DNA of 64,000 bases from Escherichia coli. Lineage in GTDB: Bacteria; Pseudomonadota; Gammaproteobacteria; Enterobacterales; Enterobacteriaceae. Position numbers and translations under genes: made by a program. Positions 1 to 53,207 of the stretch are shown here, piece by piece (position 1 is the first letter of the stretch; every line of letters begins with the position of its first letter). The stretch lies in the NCBI RefSeq assembly GCF_017348835.2, contig NZ_CP071375.1; one strand, written 5' to 3'. The notes beneath the pieces are model-generated. The model was not told the DNA's origin. It made no database searches and saw only the letters and a list, made by a program, of their open reading frames with translations.

Positions 1-5366
<5,366 letters not shown>

Positions 5367-5747: not shown

Positions 5748-6089
5748 TGCGATGTATCTCGCGATTTTTTTTTGTAACTTTTCCATCTTTTGCTTTTCTC
5801 TCCGAGCCGCTTTCCATATCTGCAATCGCATAAAAAACTCTGCTGGCGTTCACAAATGTGCAGGGGTAAAACGGGGGCACGCTTTGAACGGTGAGTATGA
5901 GTGAGGTCGGCTAACTTCCAGCAAGTGGCTATGAACAGCAAAATGGTGGTCGGGTTTGCTTGTTCTTACCGTTCAAGCCTTGCAACCGCTGAGAATAATG
6001 ATGGTGGAATAGAGAGTTTATTTATCGCGGGCATAAAAAAACCCTTACTAACCGAAGCCCGGCGTTCAGGGTTATTGCGCTAGAAGAAC

Positions 6090-6620
6090 TTATTTATTCT
6101 TTGCGCGCTCGAAGGAAGCAACGATTTCAGCTTTAGCGGCTTCTGCGTTTTCCCAACCTTCAACTTTCACCCACTTGCCTTTTTCGAGGTCTTTGTAGTG
6201 CTCGAAGAAGTGAGCGATCTGCGCTTTCAGCAGCTCTGGCAGATCGTTAACGTCTTTAATGTGATCGTATTCTTTGCTCAGCTTTGTGTGCGGAACAGCA
6301 ATCAGTTTCGCATCTTCACCGGCTTCGTCGGTCATTTTCAGAACGCCAACCGGACGGCAACGGATCACAGAACCCGGCTGCAGCGGGTACGGAGTCGGGA
6401 CCAGTACGTCAACCGGGTCACCGTCCAGAGACAGGGTGTGGTTGATGTAACCGTAGTTGCACGGATAGAACATCGCGGTGGACATGAAGCGGTCAACGAA
6501 CAGTGCGCCGCTCTCTTTGTCGATTTCGTATTTGATCGGATCTGCGTTAGCCGGGATCTCAATAACAACGTAGATGTCTTCCGGCAGATCTTTACCCGCA
6601 GGGACGTTGAGTAAGCTCAT
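6090..6620 (-). CDS. ppa: Inorganic pyrophosphatase
   Basis: 176-aa ORF ([45 protein letters not shown]...) matching E. coli Ppa. Confidence 0.95.
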
Positions 6621-9541: not shown

Positions 9542-10564
9542 ATGCCTCAATCTCTCCCGGACACTACGCCGCCGAAAAGGCGCTTTCGCTGGCCAACGGG
9601 AATGCCGCAGCTGGCGGCACTGTTGCTGGTGCTGCTGGTCGATAGCCTGGTGGCCCCGCATTTCTGGCAGGTGGTGCTCCAGGATGGGCGTTTATTCGGT
9701 AGCCCCATAGACATTCTTAACCGTGCGGCCCCCGTTGCGCTGTTGGCTATCGGAATGACGCTGGTGATCGCAACAGGTGGGATTGATCTCTCCGTGGGGG
9801 CGGTGATGGCTATCGCCGGAGCCACAACGGCTGCGATGACGGTCGCGGGATTCAGCCTGCCGATTGTTTTGTTAAGCGCCCTGGGCACTGGCATCCTGGC
9901 GGGATTGTGGAACGGCATACTGGTAGCGATCCTCAAAATTCAGCCGTTTGTTGCCACCCTGATCCTGATGGTCGCCGGGCGCGGCGTGGCGCAACTGATC
10001 ACCTCCGGACAGATCGTCACGTTTAACTCGCCGGATCTCTCATGGTTTGGCAGTGGATCGCTGTTGTTCCTGCCAACGCCGGTCATTATCGCGGTGCTGA
10101 CGCTTATCCTGTTCTGGCTGTTGACCCGCAAAACGGCGCTGGGGATGTTTATCGAAGCCGTTGGTATCAACATTCGGGCGGCAAAAAATGCCGGGGTAAA
10201 CACGCGGATCATCGTCATGCTTACCTACGTGTTGAGCGGGCTGTGTGCGGCGATTGCGGGCATTATCGTGGCGGCGGATATTCGCGGTGCCGATGCCAAT
10301 AACGCCGGGTTATGGCTGGAGCTGGACGCCATTCTCGCGGTGGTTATTGGCGGCGGATCGCTGATGGGCGGACGTTTTAACCTACTGCTTTCGGTGGTGG
10401 GGGCGCTGATTATTCAGGGGATGAACACCGGAATTTTGCTTTCGGGCTTTCCGCCAGAGATGAACCAGGTTGTAAAAGCGGTGGTGGTTCTTTGCGTGCT
10501 GATTGTCCAGTCGCAACGCTTTATCAGTCTGATTAAAGGAGTACGTAGCCGTGATAAAACGTAA
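9542..10564 (+). CDS. ytfT: ABC transporter permease YtfT
   Basis: Hydrophobic ORF; ATG at 9542 preferred over the track start 9518 because of the AAGGAGA Shine-Dalgarno at 9527-9533. Confidence 0.8.
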   Translation: MPQSLPDTTPPKRRFRWPTGMPQLAALLLVLLVDSLVAPHFWQVVLQDGRLFGSPIDILNRAAPVALLAIGMTLVIATGGIDLSVGAVMAIAGATTAAMTVAGFSLPIVLLSALGTGILAGLWNGILVAILKIQPFVATLILMVAGRGVAQLITSGQIVTFNSPDLSWFGSGSLLFLPTPVIIAVLTLILFWLLTRKTALGMFIEAVGINIRAAKNAGVNTRIIVMLTYVLSGLCAAIAGIIVAADIRGADANNAGLWLELDAILAVVIGGGSLMGGRFNLLLSVVGALIIQGMNTGILLSGFPPEMNQVVKAVVVLCVLIVQSQRFISLIKGVRSRDKT

Positions 10565-48312: not shown

Positions 48313-48397
48313 GCCGAAGTGGCGAAATCGGTAGACGCAGTTGATTCAAAATCAACCGTAGAAATACGTGCCGGTTCGAGTCCGGCCTTCGGCACCA
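48313..48397 (+). tRNA. leuX: tRNA-Leu (anticodon CAA)
   Basis: 85-nt sequence gccgaagtggcgaaatcggtagacgcagttgattcaaaatcaaccgtagaaatacgtgccggttcgagtccggccttcggcacca, with the CAA anticodon in the loop and an encoded CCA end. Confidence 0.95.
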
Positions 48398-48930
48398 AGT
48401 TACTAAATTCCTTACAATACAGTTAGTTAGACGATTAAATCTGTCTCTTTTGCCTGTAAGAAATGCTCTGTTATGTCCCTTGAAAAAGCCGCTGTGGTTG
48501 ATAGTGGTAATTGGGATGTTAACTCATAGCGGCGTGTCGTTCCAAGCGTCAAACACGTACTGACTCAACTTGAAAGCTATGACGTAGCCACCGTCTCTAA
48601 ACAATCCCAAAACTTTTAGTGCAGCGCATTTTAGCCCGATGCCCCCATTCTGTCGCCGTCGCGAGACGCCGCAGGGGATAAACAGGTTTATGGTGGTCAC
48701 GGTACTTGCAGACCATATGCAAGCTCTGCCAGCGGTTCGGCCTCGCTCCCCTTGGGTACATGGTCATCCTGATAAGCCTCACTAACTGACATAACCCTGA
48801 TGAAGTCGCAAGAGGCTCCGCTTGTTGTCTTACCACCAACGGGGCTTTATGGATTCTATTGCTTAATATATGATTGTATCAAACTTAGACTGCATAATTT
48901 AAACGAACATAACAATCAGGCAGGGGAAGA

Positions 48931-49755
48931 ATGATAAAGCCATTTTCTGTGAGGTATGGTCATGTTGACGTTAGAGAGCATGTCCAGCTGAATGATCTTA
49001 ATTCTGATACACGCATAGCATTGTGGAATTGCTTATATCTTTTCCTTTGGACTAACAATCGTCAAACTGCTACAGCAACAAAATGTGCGCAGTCTGTGTG
49101 GATATATTATCTAAATCAACCTGCGGATAATATTCCTCGTTATGAAAGTGGATACAAAAGTGATAAGACGTTGCTGACTGCTATCCGAGATTATATATAT
49201 GGGGAAGCATGGTATTTGGTATATGATTTAATTGAGTTCATCATTGAGAGAACTAATTCATATATTAATCTATCGAAGCATCTCAATTCCATCTTTAAAA
49301 AGCATGGCGTTGGTTATACCATAATAAATGGTTGTATTACTCCTATTTCAAATGATAACGAAATTGAAAGTGTTCAGAACGCAGTTGATAATGGCACTGA
49401 TTCATCGCGTAGCCATTTCGAAAGGGCGTTACAACTAATGACGGATAGAGAGCAGCCAGACTACAGAAACTCGATTAAAGAGTCTATCTCTGCAATTGAA
49501 TCTTTATGCAGGAAAATCACGGGCAATGATAAAGGAACCTTGGGGGCTTGTCTTAAAGCTATAGAGGAAAAAGGATATATACACTCTGCAATGAAAGGCG
49601 CTTTTAGTCAGCTCTATGGTTATACAAGTGATCAGGGTGGAATACGTCATGCGCTAACAGAAGAAGATGTAAATCCTACCTTAGCTGAAGCTAAATTTAT
49701 GTTAGTCACTTGCAGTGCGTTCAGTAATTATCTGTTGTCAAAAATAAGTGATTAA
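48931..49755 (+). CDS. Hypothetical protein, 274 aa, AT-rich, no motif recognised by eye
   Basis: Long uninterrupted ORF with a good Shine-Dalgarno (aggggaag) before the ATG; codon usage and base composition atypical of the flanking core genes; about 530 bp downstream of leuX. Confidence 0.6.
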   Translation: MIKPFSVRYGHVDVREHVQLNDLNSDTRIALWNCLYLFLWTNNRQTATATKCAQSVWIYYLNQPADNIPRYESGYKSDKTLLTAIRDYIYGEAWYLVYDLIEFIIERTNSYINLSKHLNSIFKKHGVGYTIINGCITPISNDNEIESVQNAVDNGTDSSRSHFERALQLMTDREQPDYRNSIKESISAIESLCRKITGNDKGTLGACLKAIEEKGYIHSAMKGAFSQLYGYTSDQGGIRHALTEEDVNPTLAEAKFMLVTCSAFSNYLLSKISD

Positions 49756-49773
49756 TTACAGGTTTATAGTTAC

Positions 49774-49794
49774 GAGTGGGTTAGTTACCCACTC
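49774..49794. terminator. Perfect 8-bp stem hairpin between the two convergent islet ORFs (possible bidirectional terminator)
   Basis: gagtgggt-tagtt-acccactc lies in the 48-bp gap between the two stop codons; flanking U runs are weak. Confidence 0.4.
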
Positions 49795-49803
49795 CCTTTA
49801 AAA

Positions 49804-50376
49804 TTATTCACCAGACTCTAATCTTTTTTCTCTTTTCTCATCTCTCCTTTTTATTGCCAAATCGTGTTGCTCTTGCAGATACGTGCGTTCTTCGTTTCTA
49901 TCGCTTGAAGTATATACGTCTGCTTTTACTTTTTTAGCTCCTTGTGCAATAGGTTTCCAATCCTCTCTTATACCTTTAATTTGTTCTGCAATTTGCGTCA
50001 ATGGGCTTCTCGCTCCTAGATAACTTATTCCTTCAAATGTCGCCATGTCATACACATATTCATTTGTTTCTCTATCGTTTGATTTAGGTTTGCTTGCCCA
50101 GCTTATATTAATATTATAAATTTGATCTTTGATTTGTTCATACTTACAGAGATTGCTGGTAAGTGATTGCCCATTTTTTAACACGCTTACCTTACTAAAC
50201 GGAATCTCACTTTTTTCTCTATGCTCCGCATTTACTAGTGGAGGATCAAACACAACCTCAACATTATAGGCAGGTGCGTTCCCTGTATTAGCAATGTTAA
50301 TATCAAAGTAAAAAGCGGCCCAAGGGTTTGGCTCAAGTGTTACAACTATATGGGGTTGAGCTGATGCGTCAACCAT
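49804..50376 (-). CDS. Hypothetical protein, 190 aa from the first ATG (208 aa if the GTG at 50430 is used), charged and hydrophilic
   Basis: ORF convergent with 48931..49755. The GTG-extended N terminus runs into the IS911 terminal sequence, so the ATG at 50374-50376 is preferred. No motif recognised. Confidence 0.5.
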   Translation of the reverse strand: MVDASAQPHIVVTLEPNPWAAFYFDINIANTGNAPAYNVEVVFDPPLVNAEHREKSEIPFSKVSVLKNGQSLTSNLCKYEQIKDQIYNINISWASKPKSNDRETNEYVYDMATFEGISYLGARSPLTQIAEQIKGIREDWKPIAQGAKKVKADVYTSSDRNEERTYLQEQHDLAIKRRDEKREKRLESGE

Positions 50377-50476
50377 TCTTTTTGTCTCGTCTGCTCTGAA
50401 GTGGTGAAGTGGTTTACTGAATTTGGCCACCTGAACAGAGGTGATATGCTCACCTCAGAACAACACAGGTGCTCCA

Positions 50477-50739
50477 ATGAAAAAAAGAAATTTTAGCGCA
50501 GAGTTTAAACGCGAATCCGCTCAACTGGTTGTTGACCAGACATACACGGTGGCAGATGCCGCCAAAGCTATGGATGTTGGCCTTTCCACAATGACAAGAT
50601 GGGTCAAACAACTGCGTGATGAGCGTCAGGGCAAAACACCAAAAGCCTCTCCGATAACACCAGAACAAATCGAAATACGTAAGCTGAGGAAAAAGCTACA
50701 ACGCATTGAAATGGAGAATGAAATATTAAAAAAGGCTAC
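50477..50739 (+). pseudogene. insN: IS911 orfA (InsN), truncated by the IS30 insertion after about codon 87
   Basis: Translation follows IS911 OrfA up to …EILKKAT, then runs into the IS30 terminal repeat at 50740. Confidence 0.8.
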
Positions 50740-51960
50740 TGTAGATTCAATCTGTCAATGCAACACCCCTTTCAATTATCTCTTTCGGTGTTTTGAACTT
50801 CAGTGTCTTTCTCGGTCTGTTGTTTAGCTGAGCAGCAACCAGATCTAGTTCATGTTGAGTATATTGGGCAAGACATGTCTTTTTAGGAAAGTACTGCCGA
50901 ATTAGCCCATTTGTGTTCTCATTTGTTCCCCGCTGCCAAGGACTCTGAGGATCGCAGAAGTAAACTTTAACGCCGGTGCTGACAGTAAATTCTAGATGTC
51001 TGGCCAGTTCCATTCCTCTGTCCCATGTCAGTGATTTTCTGAGTTCTGACGGTAAACTCAGGAATTTGTCGGTAAGAGCCTGATTTACTGAGACAGAATC
51101 TTTGCCCCTGAGTCTAAGGATGATCGTATAACGTGATTTTCGGTCTACAAGTGTGGCTATATGAGAGTTTTTTGTACCTGAGACTAAATCGCCCTCCCAA
51201 TGCCCCAGAGAGCGTCTGTTATCGATATTTCGGGAACGTTCGTGAATTGGTGTTCCGTTCACTATGTTAATCGTACCTCTTTCGCCTTTGCGGGTATGAC
51301 GCCTGCCATGGCGAAGGCTATGCGACCGTCGCAGATGCTGTATATTCAGGTGGTGTAGCGCTTCACGGCTACGAAAGTACAGCGTTTTATAAATTGTCTC
51401 AGGTGATATTCGCAGCGTTTTTTGACGTGGTTTTGTTCGCCTTAACCATCCTGATATTTGCTCTGGAGACCATTTCATCTCCAGCTTTTCCAGAACAAGC
51501 TTTCGCAATGGTAAATTTTGATCCAGTAAGCACGGTTTTGGCCTTTTCGCCATTCTGTTGGCTCGGTTATTAGCATCAACAGCTTTGTAATAGCGTCTGC
51601 CCCGATTACGCTGAACTTCACGTGAGATCGTCGAAGGACTGCGATTCAGCGCAGTAGCTATCGCACGAATGCTCATTTTGGCTGACAAACCAGCTCGTAT
51701 CTCCTCGCGCTCAGACAGTGTCAGGTGAGCTACAGCCCGCTTATGCTCATGGGGTTTTATGCCGCCAGTATCCCTTAACATAGTGAAGATCGTTCCGGGT
51801 TTTGAACCCAGGATATTCGCTATTTCACTGAAGCCTGTTCCGTTCTTCCATAGTTCAAAAACAGAGGCTTTTTCCTCTGCTGTAAATGTTCGTCTCATTC
51901 AAAAAACCTCCGCAACCCCATGTTTTCACATAACTGTTGCGTTGACCAATTGAATCTACA
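50740..51960 (-). mobile_element. IS30, complete 1221-bp copy inserted into IS911 orfA with a 2-bp target duplication (AC)
   Basis: Terminal inverted repeats tgtagattcaat… at 50740 and …attgaatctaca at 51960; AC at 50738-50739 and 51961-51962; the IS911 sequence resumes at 51963. Confidence 0.9.
50747..51898 (-). CDS. insI: IS30 transposase (InsI), 383 aa
   Basis: [41 protein letters not shown]… matches the IS30 transposase. Confidence 0.9.
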
Positions 51961-52028
51961 ACCGCGCTCTTGATGTCAGACTCCCTGAACAGTTCTCGAT
52001 AATCAGGAAACTCAGAGCGCATTATCCT

Positions 52029-52867
<839 letters not shown>

Positions 52868-52871
52868 CCAC

Positions 52872-53207
52872 AACAGACTACCTGAAGGGAGCCGCGGTCG
52901 CCTAGCAGTTGCAGTAGCAGGAGATCATCCAGCCGCAGTACAGGTCACGATGACTCTGGTTAATGATACCGGCTTTGACCCCGTATTTTCCGGCTCTATC
53001 GCTGAATCATGGCGTCAGCAGCCGTGCACACCATCCTATTGTTGTGACTGGGAGGCTGCCACCATGCTTCGCGCTTTCCCTCTGGCGAAAAAGGGAGAAG
53101 GACGGGCCCGTCTGCCTTCACTTTATGCCAGCTTCGGTAAGCTGGGTGAGACACCGACTCATAAAGATATCATTGATAACAATCGATCCATCAACTGGCC
53201 TGTATAA
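52872..53207 (+). other. Uncharacterised ORF fragment (possibly yjhV-like) between IS911 and fecE
   Basis: The open frame continues out of the IS911 terminus; no start context or function assignable. Confidence 0.3.

Follow-up and report, generated by a model that had tools for sequence, protein, structure and literature searches.

Adjacent deletion or truncation by elements of the IS3 family, in which a new copy is inserted nearby and the copies recombine, leaves the deletion endpoint at an IS terminus. For IS911, which belongs to this family, targeted insertion beside its own ends has also been described; in those insertions the ends are inverted and a few bp apart, and are not arranged head-to-tail with zero spacing. 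Such insertion beside IS911 ends at limiting OrfA was reportedly observed by Loot (2002) and Rousseau (2007/2008). Each IS911 end is made up of a terminal block for cleavage and subterminal blocks for binding, and OrfAB[1-149] leaves the outer region unbound (PMC3299598, PMC2909936); pIRL is named as an IS911 promoter in PMC2909936. A copy of IS911 interrupted by IS30 is known from K-12 (IS911B::IS30D; insO/insI3, KpLE2), where it stands beside fecE. Regarding protein-coding cargo, the 'lysogenic conversion' ORF in the Z/fun region of P2 (P2-EC53 ORF1, phage R18C) belongs to the DUF8453/phrog_11802 family and shows about 79% amino acid identity to an Enterobacter homologue.

We compared these systems with a 64,000-nucleotide stretch of Escherichia coli DNA (hereafter the window), which contains the leuX-fec region with the gene order yjgR, ahr, tRNA-Leu(CAA), two islet genes, IS911 interrupted by IS30, yjhV, and fecE. 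At positions 50397-50430, the remnant of a 5'-truncated pseudogene very probably meets a defunct IS911 at its left end. As in the adjacent deletions of the IS3 family, one deletion endpoint coincides with the IS terminus, the gene and the remainder of the island are missing from that side, two alleles are combined in the IS, and a target-site duplication is absent, whereas the extra 9 nt between the remnant and the IS are not predicted by that pathway. The window shares juxtaposed IS911 end sequences with the products of targeted insertion beside the element's own ends (Loot, Turlan, Rousseau, Chandler); however, only an 8-nt block is repeated in the window, head-to-tail and with zero spacer, whereas the described products contain full ends with the transposase-binding blocks. 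Like the DUF8453 gene of P2-EC53 and R18C, that of the window is mobile-element cargo at a variable locus, but the phage and Enterobacter copies are full length, encoding about 230 aa that begin with a transmembrane helix, whereas in the window copy the first ~40 residues are missing. The features are listed in Table 1.

Table 1 Features of the leuX-fec region around the junction. Positions are those of the window.
Feature	Position	Strand	Basis or remark
tRNA-Leu(CAA) leuX, island integration site	48313..48397	+	ARAGORN; match to K-12 stops at the 3' end of the tRNA
AbiJ-NTD4 gene, intact, 274 aa, neighbour of the truncated gene	48931..49755	+	RefSeq annotation; PADLOC PDC-S32
190-aa ORF, 3' remnant of a DUF8453/phrog_11802 gene	49804..50376	-	Profile match; alignment with 225-246-aa homologues
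Native coding sequence 5' of the annotated ATG, codons A-D-E-T-K-R and one base	50377..50395	-	DNA alignment
Orphan C+TGAAGTGG	50396..50404	+	Extra 8-nt IS911 tip; alignments of other IS911 copies begin at 50405
IS911 left inverted repeat (TGAAGTGGTTTACTGAATTTGGCCACC...), TTT allele	50405..50440	+	0-mismatch pattern match; alignment with K-12 IS911B, pfosA3, and ISEc52
IS911 left arm, interrupted by IS30; contains orfA (ATG at 50477)	50405..50739	+	blastn against K-12; ORF list
IS30, 1221 bp, transposase 50747-51898, inside IS911 orfA	50740..51960	-	Sequence; K-12 IS30D annotation and alignment
IS911 right arm	51961..52875	+	orfB frameshifted: ORFs 52029-52628 and 52625-52867

On the plus strand, the junction reads gtctgctc-TGAAGTGG-TGAAGTGG-tttactgaatttggccacc, which confirms that the octamer tgaagtgg occurs twice in tandem (50397-50404 and 50405-50412), as claimed in the original prediction. 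Once the following T is counted, the run with a period of 8 extends over 17 nt (50397-50413). The minus-strand ATG (50376-50374) is separated from the outer octamer by 20 bp and from the inner octamer by 28 bp, the latter value being in agreement with the claim that the IS911 left terminus lies within 30 bp of the preferred ATG. The GTG of the extended, 208-aa version was located at 50430-50428, within the 36-bp left repeat of IS911, so that the claim of an extended ORF beginning inside the terminal repeat was also borne out. The probability that a given exact 8-mer abuts an IS tip by chance is approximately 4^-8 = 1.5e-5 per junction.

The inner octamer could be assigned to the IS by comparison with other copies. 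The left-end blocks TGAAGTGG...ACTGAATTTGGCCACC were found by an exact pattern match at 50405-50431, as expected for the left end of IS911. When a 304-nt query starting at 50397 was searched against 5,426 complete E. coli genomes, 8,361 places in 4,115 genomes were found, and the IS911/ISEc52 copies elsewhere aligned from query position 9, namely 50405, give or take a few chance bases of the flank. The form TGAAGTGG-TTT-ACTGAATTTGGCC is also present in other copies (the pfosA3 plasmid copy and ISEc52), whereas K-12 has CAC. Because other copies align from 50405 and the TTT variant occurs elsewhere, the inner octamer, starting at 50405, is the true left end of IS911. The preceding 9 nt, C+TGAAGTGG, are foreign to both the native gene and the canonical IS and form an orphan second copy of the IS tip. 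We assign the duplicated 8 nt, which form the terminal block, to the cleavage block outside the transposase-binding region (PMC3299598); lying outside that region, the octamer would have no function here, and no biological role of the tandem tip is evident.

The ORF on the other side of the junction was compared with its family. Against phrog_11802 (230 positions, PHROGs), the window ORF matched positions 45-228 (E=2.4e-81) and the Enterobacter protein matched positions 1-228. Some copies are labelled 'DUF8453 domain-containing protein' in RefSeq; Pfam-A, which in the version used has no DUF8453 model, gave no match whether the full-length or the truncated protein was searched, and a search of NCBIfam gave nothing meaningful. 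In the protein search, E. coli copies were 190-220 aa with varying annotated starts, and relatives from Enterobacter, Klebsiella, Citrobacter, Yersinia, Pectobacterium, and Mesorhizobium were mostly 225-246 aa with 45-82% identity. The alignment indicated that the extra ~40 residues of these homologues are N-terminal and hold the conserved segment ISAFAALLTAVATFFLWRVTRLLA, and that the 'start' ATG of the window corresponds to the conserved internal Met of the motif ETKRMVDAS. The Kyte-Doolittle mean over 19 residues was 1.9-2.3 at residues ~12-38 of four full-length homologues, with a maximum of 0.78 in the window ORF; the N-terminal hydrophobic segment of the full-length architecture (a helix followed by a domain of ~190 aa) is absent from the latter.

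At the DNA level, the in-frame homology runs for 19 nt upstream of the ATG and ends abruptly at 50395. The same endpoint was obtained by blastn with the Enterobacter roggenkampii locus (90% identity over 2.2 kb, into leuX) and with the locus of E. coli NCTC11023. Beyond 50395, intact genes have AACAGCC or AATAGCC, encoding R-L-L of the conserved TRLLA, and the window has C-TGAAGTGG followed by the IS. The breakpoint is 50395/50396 or could be 50396/97, because the closest intact copy is only 90% identical. These results show that the ORF is not full length and that approximately 39-44 codons were lost together with the transmembrane helix, the start codon, the ribosome-binding site, and the promoter. 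The 208-aa form starting from GTG would be a chimera with 12 IS-encoded codons. That the IS event removed the N terminus and the promoter, as had been proposed, is supported by both limits of the homology (profile position 45 of 230 and nucleotide 50395), and the homologues show the opposite of an ORF that is full length from the ATG at 50376.

The native sequence also bears on the origin of the tandem, for which two possibilities had been put forward: a duplicated IS terminus, which is favoured by our results, and a look-alike in the target, which is disfavoured. In the latter case, IS911, being drawn to end-like sequences, would have inserted beside a pre-existing TGAAGTGG; insertion of IS911 beside IS911 ends when OrfA is limiting is indeed cited in PMC2909936, PMC3299598, and PMC7986276. 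The octamer is also more frequent in the window than expected (7 occurrences versus 1.8), but the remaining five copies have no relation to IS ends. Read in frame, it would replace the near-invariant R-L-L, for which the intact homologues carry their own sequence at this position. Nor does the head-to-tail tandem resemble the geometry of the described targeted insertions. Furthermore, targeting needs the subterminal blocks and not the terminal 8 nt, which are unbound by OrfAB[1-149] (PMC3299598, PMC2909936), and in the window only an 8-nt tip is present outside the IS, preceded by native gene sequence and not by an IS911 end that includes the subterminal blocks. Since the native sequence differs and the transposase binds subterminal blocks, a look-alike in the target is unlikely.

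Subsequently, the signals available for expression of the remnant were considered. The IS911 promoters pIRL and pjunc read into the element and not out of the left repeat. Consensus scans of the minus strand from the ATG to IS30 (50377-50740) detected no sigma-70-like promoter, which speaks against the earlier suggestion that the IS end supplied an outward-reading promoter, and neither a promoter nor a terminator was predicted at 50377-52000. Two promoter-like sites were present inside the ORF, a number not above the shuffle expectation. A relaxed scan gave only one 8/12 pair, TTGAAT-16/17-TAATAT, at 50750-50723 on the minus strand, approximately 350 nt upstream of the ORF. This weak pair straddles the right end of IS30 and IS911 DNA and points toward the truncated ORF. 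A Shine-Dalgarno-like sequence was found neither before the ATG (CTTCAGAGCAGACGAGACAAAAAGA) nor before the GTG. The IS30 transposase gene reads toward the ORF, and any transcription of the ORF would need read-through out of IS30; considering the weak 8/12 pair and the lack of predicted terminators, such read-through may be possible.

A re-started gene, in which the IS end or IS30 drives a soluble, anchor-less DUF8453 protein of 190 aa (ATG 50376) or 208 aa (GTG 50430), was weighed against these data. The lack of a predicted terminator between the IS30 transposase gene and the ORF and the 8/12 pair at the IS30 end would allow it, and several database records give versions of 190 to 220 aa. However, the IS911 repeat and the 28-bp gap contain no promoter-like site, neither start is preceded by a Shine-Dalgarno-like sequence, the known promoters of IS911 point into the element, and the transmembrane helix that all full-length homologues conserve is absent. 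In 465 genomes the ORF is open with at least 99% identity, but the flanking DNA is just as conserved, owing to a recent common origin: the intact AbiJ gene gives the same figures (465 genomes, at least 99% identity), and in a check for decay or selection the remnant was disrupted no more and no less often than this neighbour. Because the haplotype is too young, the conservation of the remnant is neither for nor against a retained function. Taken together, a re-started gene is quite unlikely, and a functional protein is most likely not made from the 190-aa ORF or its 208-aa GTG version. A further reading takes the orphan tip as a footprint of IS911 end processing and the anchor-less remnant, read through from IS30, as a modulator of the AbiJ-like candidate; if true, the tip would be in-genome evidence for a side reaction of the copy-out/paste-in pathway that was only inferred in vitro, but we regard this reading as highly doubtful.

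Returning to the truncated remnant, its surroundings indicate what has been lost. The neighbouring AbiJ-NTD4 protein matched PADLOC PDC-S32, a candidate single-gene defence, with E=6.4e-104 (residues 3-272 to profile positions 8-281 of 285), and the same 274-aa partner was found in Enterobacter and metagenome contigs. In E. roggenkampii, the order is leuX, the AbiJ-NTD4 gene, the intact DUF8453 gene (234 aa), a resolvase, and a DEAD-box helicase; the AbiJ-NTD4 and full-length DUF8453 genes are arranged tail-to-tail at leuX, and the same pair was found in two metagenome contigs. E. coli lacks everything on the 5' side of codon ~39 of the DUF8453 gene, including the resolvase and the rest of the island, and its sequence passes directly into IS911::IS30, which adjoins fec in K-12 too. 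The att core is the last ~25 nt of leuX (48373-48397), and the alignments of Nissle, TW10722, and a metagenome-assembled contig start at 48373/48374. Where a second island intervenes, as in Nissle, TW10722, and one metagenome-assembled contig, the ~25-nt leuX end recurs just before the islet. Based on the arrangement in E. roggenkampii and the metagenome contigs and on the leuX-end repeats, the islet is identified as the tRNA-proximal cargo end of an integrative island at leuX, the remainder of which was deleted up to IS911. The repeated leuX end suggests tandem island integration at leuX, with only the remnant in the window strain.

Several minor observations were made on this island family. 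Within the extracted loci, the leuX-end repeat is at 3074 in Nissle, at 2226 in TW10722, and at 2466 and 9753-9853 in the metagenome-assembled contig. In E. coli NCTC11023, the DUF8453 homologue is paired with a DUF3800 protein instead of AbiJ-NTD4. A related leuX island (E. coli JE86-ST05, 6001-6190 of the extract, and ~100 other genomes) keeps the resolvase and the resolvase-proximal intergenic region, which is 97% identical to the metagenome DUF8453 locus, and has a different cargo from 50 nt before the would-be DUF8453 ATG; this switch point suggests a cargo-exchange boundary of the island family. The 97% matches in ~100 E. coli genomes had been taken as candidates for the missing 5' half of the gene, but they correspond to the resolvase-proximal intergenic region of this island with different cargo. 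A 'circular permutation' of the gene was likewise dropped, as the matches proved to be the intergenic region once the true ATG was placed.

The IS911 copy itself extends from 50405 to 52875. Both orfA and orfB are present downstream of the left repeat but are broken by IS30 and a frameshift, leaving orfB fragments at 52029-52867; orfB of this IS911 is annotated as 'frameshifted' in Nissle as well. IS30 is flanked by the 2-bp direct repeat AC (50738-39 and 51961-62). The tip of the right repeat (52868-52875) is CCACAACA, which has two substitutions relative to CCACTTCA. With IS30 inside it, a frameshift in orfB, and a mutated right tip, the copy is a degenerate, dead element. No 3-4 bp target repeat was found flanking IS911 (TGG on the left, or CTC when the outer tip is included, and GAC on the right), and this is consistent with secondary rearrangement and not with simple insertion.

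Comparison with K-12 IS911B::IS30D indicated that it is the same IS911 copy, with IS30 inserted at an identical position and orientation and with 99.4% identity over 50405-51960. The right arm with its mutated tip and the right flank yjhV-fecE are common to K-12 and the window; because the mutated tip is identical in both, the right end was already crippled in the common ancestor of the two haplotypes. K-12 differs from the window in its left flank (yjhE), in the canonical CAC allele, in the absence of the tandem tip, and in a 327-bp IS600 fragment that replaces 120 bp of IS911 (window 51961-52080). There were 8 differences from K-12 in the 334-bp left arm of IS911 versus 2 in the 1221 bp of IS30, so that the left arm is of separate ancestry, which is the signature expected from recombination or conversion with another IS911-family copy. 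The IS911 copy has been rebuilt repeatedly by recombination. Another 24 differences from K-12 are located inside 52130-52355.

The distribution of the junction was then examined among the 5,426 complete E. coli genomes. The exact tandem junction is present in about 460 of them, across phylogroups, including Nissle 1917, ATCC 25922, ATCC 11775, E. coli C, and O26/O103/O111 strains. An empty site and E. coli strains carrying the islet without IS911 were sought for comparison, but neither was found: all of the 465-472 genomes with the islet have the truncated form, and 460 have the tandem junction. The carriers without the tandem that were inspected represent secondary events, namely an IS629-linked deletion in TW10722, IS1 in EC21Z-063, and a break at 50272 in two others. 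In TW10722 (4216-5522 of the extract), an IS629/IS1203-type element joins window position 50364 to 52596; this secondary, IS-mediated deletion took away the tandem junction, IS30, and half of IS911. When a synthetic single-tip junction was used as the query against the 5,426 genomes, the best matches all showed an 8-nt gap and no single-tip version appeared, and the intermediates looked for (a single tip and two nested IS911 copies) were not found. A 34-nt query over the tandem gave 511 records, with 518 of 520 places being chromosomal; the whole-query matches sampled were single chromosomal places, and the partial matches sampled start at position 5 or 7.

The tandem was not found on any other IS911 copy in the 5,426 E. 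coli genomes, and a pattern scan of 100,044 species representatives gave a single contig, which equals this E. coli locus. That contig, JAIJJM010000048.1 (9.9 kb, 'MAG: Collinsella sp.'), is 99.9% identical to window positions 48373-50838, and its Collinsella label is most likely due to a binning error or contamination. A metagenome scan in which 0-20 nt were allowed between the gene and the IS gave four contigs, all with the 9-nt spacing. Given that there is only one junction, only the 9-nt spacing, and no single tip, the tandem goes back to one event that was fixed before the haplotype spread. Its restriction to one orthologous junction in ~460 genomes indicates that the tandem is real and not due to chance, but is the product of a single historical event. 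That a variant IS911 with a left repeat starting at 50397 transposed here together with its duplicated tip is extremely improbable: the outer octamer begins with TG like IS3-family ends and is a perfect copy of the tip, but the tandem is absent elsewhere in all three of these surveys, the transposase-binding blocks are displaced by 8 bp from the register that the outer tip would require, and the flanks (CTC/TGG and GAC) give no 3-bp target duplication for either end.

In the favoured reading, a truncated remnant joined to a defunct IS911, the truncation would be an IS911-associated deletion. Most likely, and most simply, an IS911-family copy inserted into the DUF8453 gene, and recombination with the fec-proximal IS911::IS30 then removed the 5' part of this gene along with what remained of the island, a route that fits the mosaic left arm. 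If the crossover was with an intact IS911, only the last 11 bp of the left arm would be available for it; alternatively, gene conversion bounded by the IS30 heterology would be involved. The extra tip probably arose once, at or near the truncation event. In one route, a tip-anchored duplication of 8 bp would be generated by slippage or by re-priming at a transposase nick, with the nicked 3' end CCACTTCA re-annealing 8 nt back through a microhomology of 1 nt (the T at 50413). In another, a second IS911 would have inserted between nt 8 and 9 of the resident copy, after which both recombined. The sequence fits the duplication and the nested insertion alike, and we infer from the present arrangement both how the events followed one another and where the extra tip came from.

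The feature is consequently regarded as real but ordinary: it is a relic of mobile-element activity in which an IS tip was duplicated a single time. For annotation, the ORF of 190 to 220 aa that ~8% of complete E. coli genomes (Nissle 1917, ATCC 25922, E. coli C, and O26/O103/O111 EHEC among them) list under names such as 'hypothetical', 'DUF8453', or 'lysogenic conversion' protein is a 5'-truncated remnant, and its longer annotated versions contain IS-encoded codons. The tandem tip offers a unique 16-nt marker of the leuX-fec haplotype. Functional work on DUF8453, both from the P2 Z/fun region and from the leuX cargo, should use the ~230-aa copies. In the P2-like Z/fun region, the family is located between the tail-fibre and tail-sheath genes (1247-1939 of AJ512682.1 and 3001-3693 of R18C). 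In the Z/fun region of P2-EC53, the DUF8453 gene stands alone as the sole annotated ORF and is labelled 'putative lysogenic conversion protein'.
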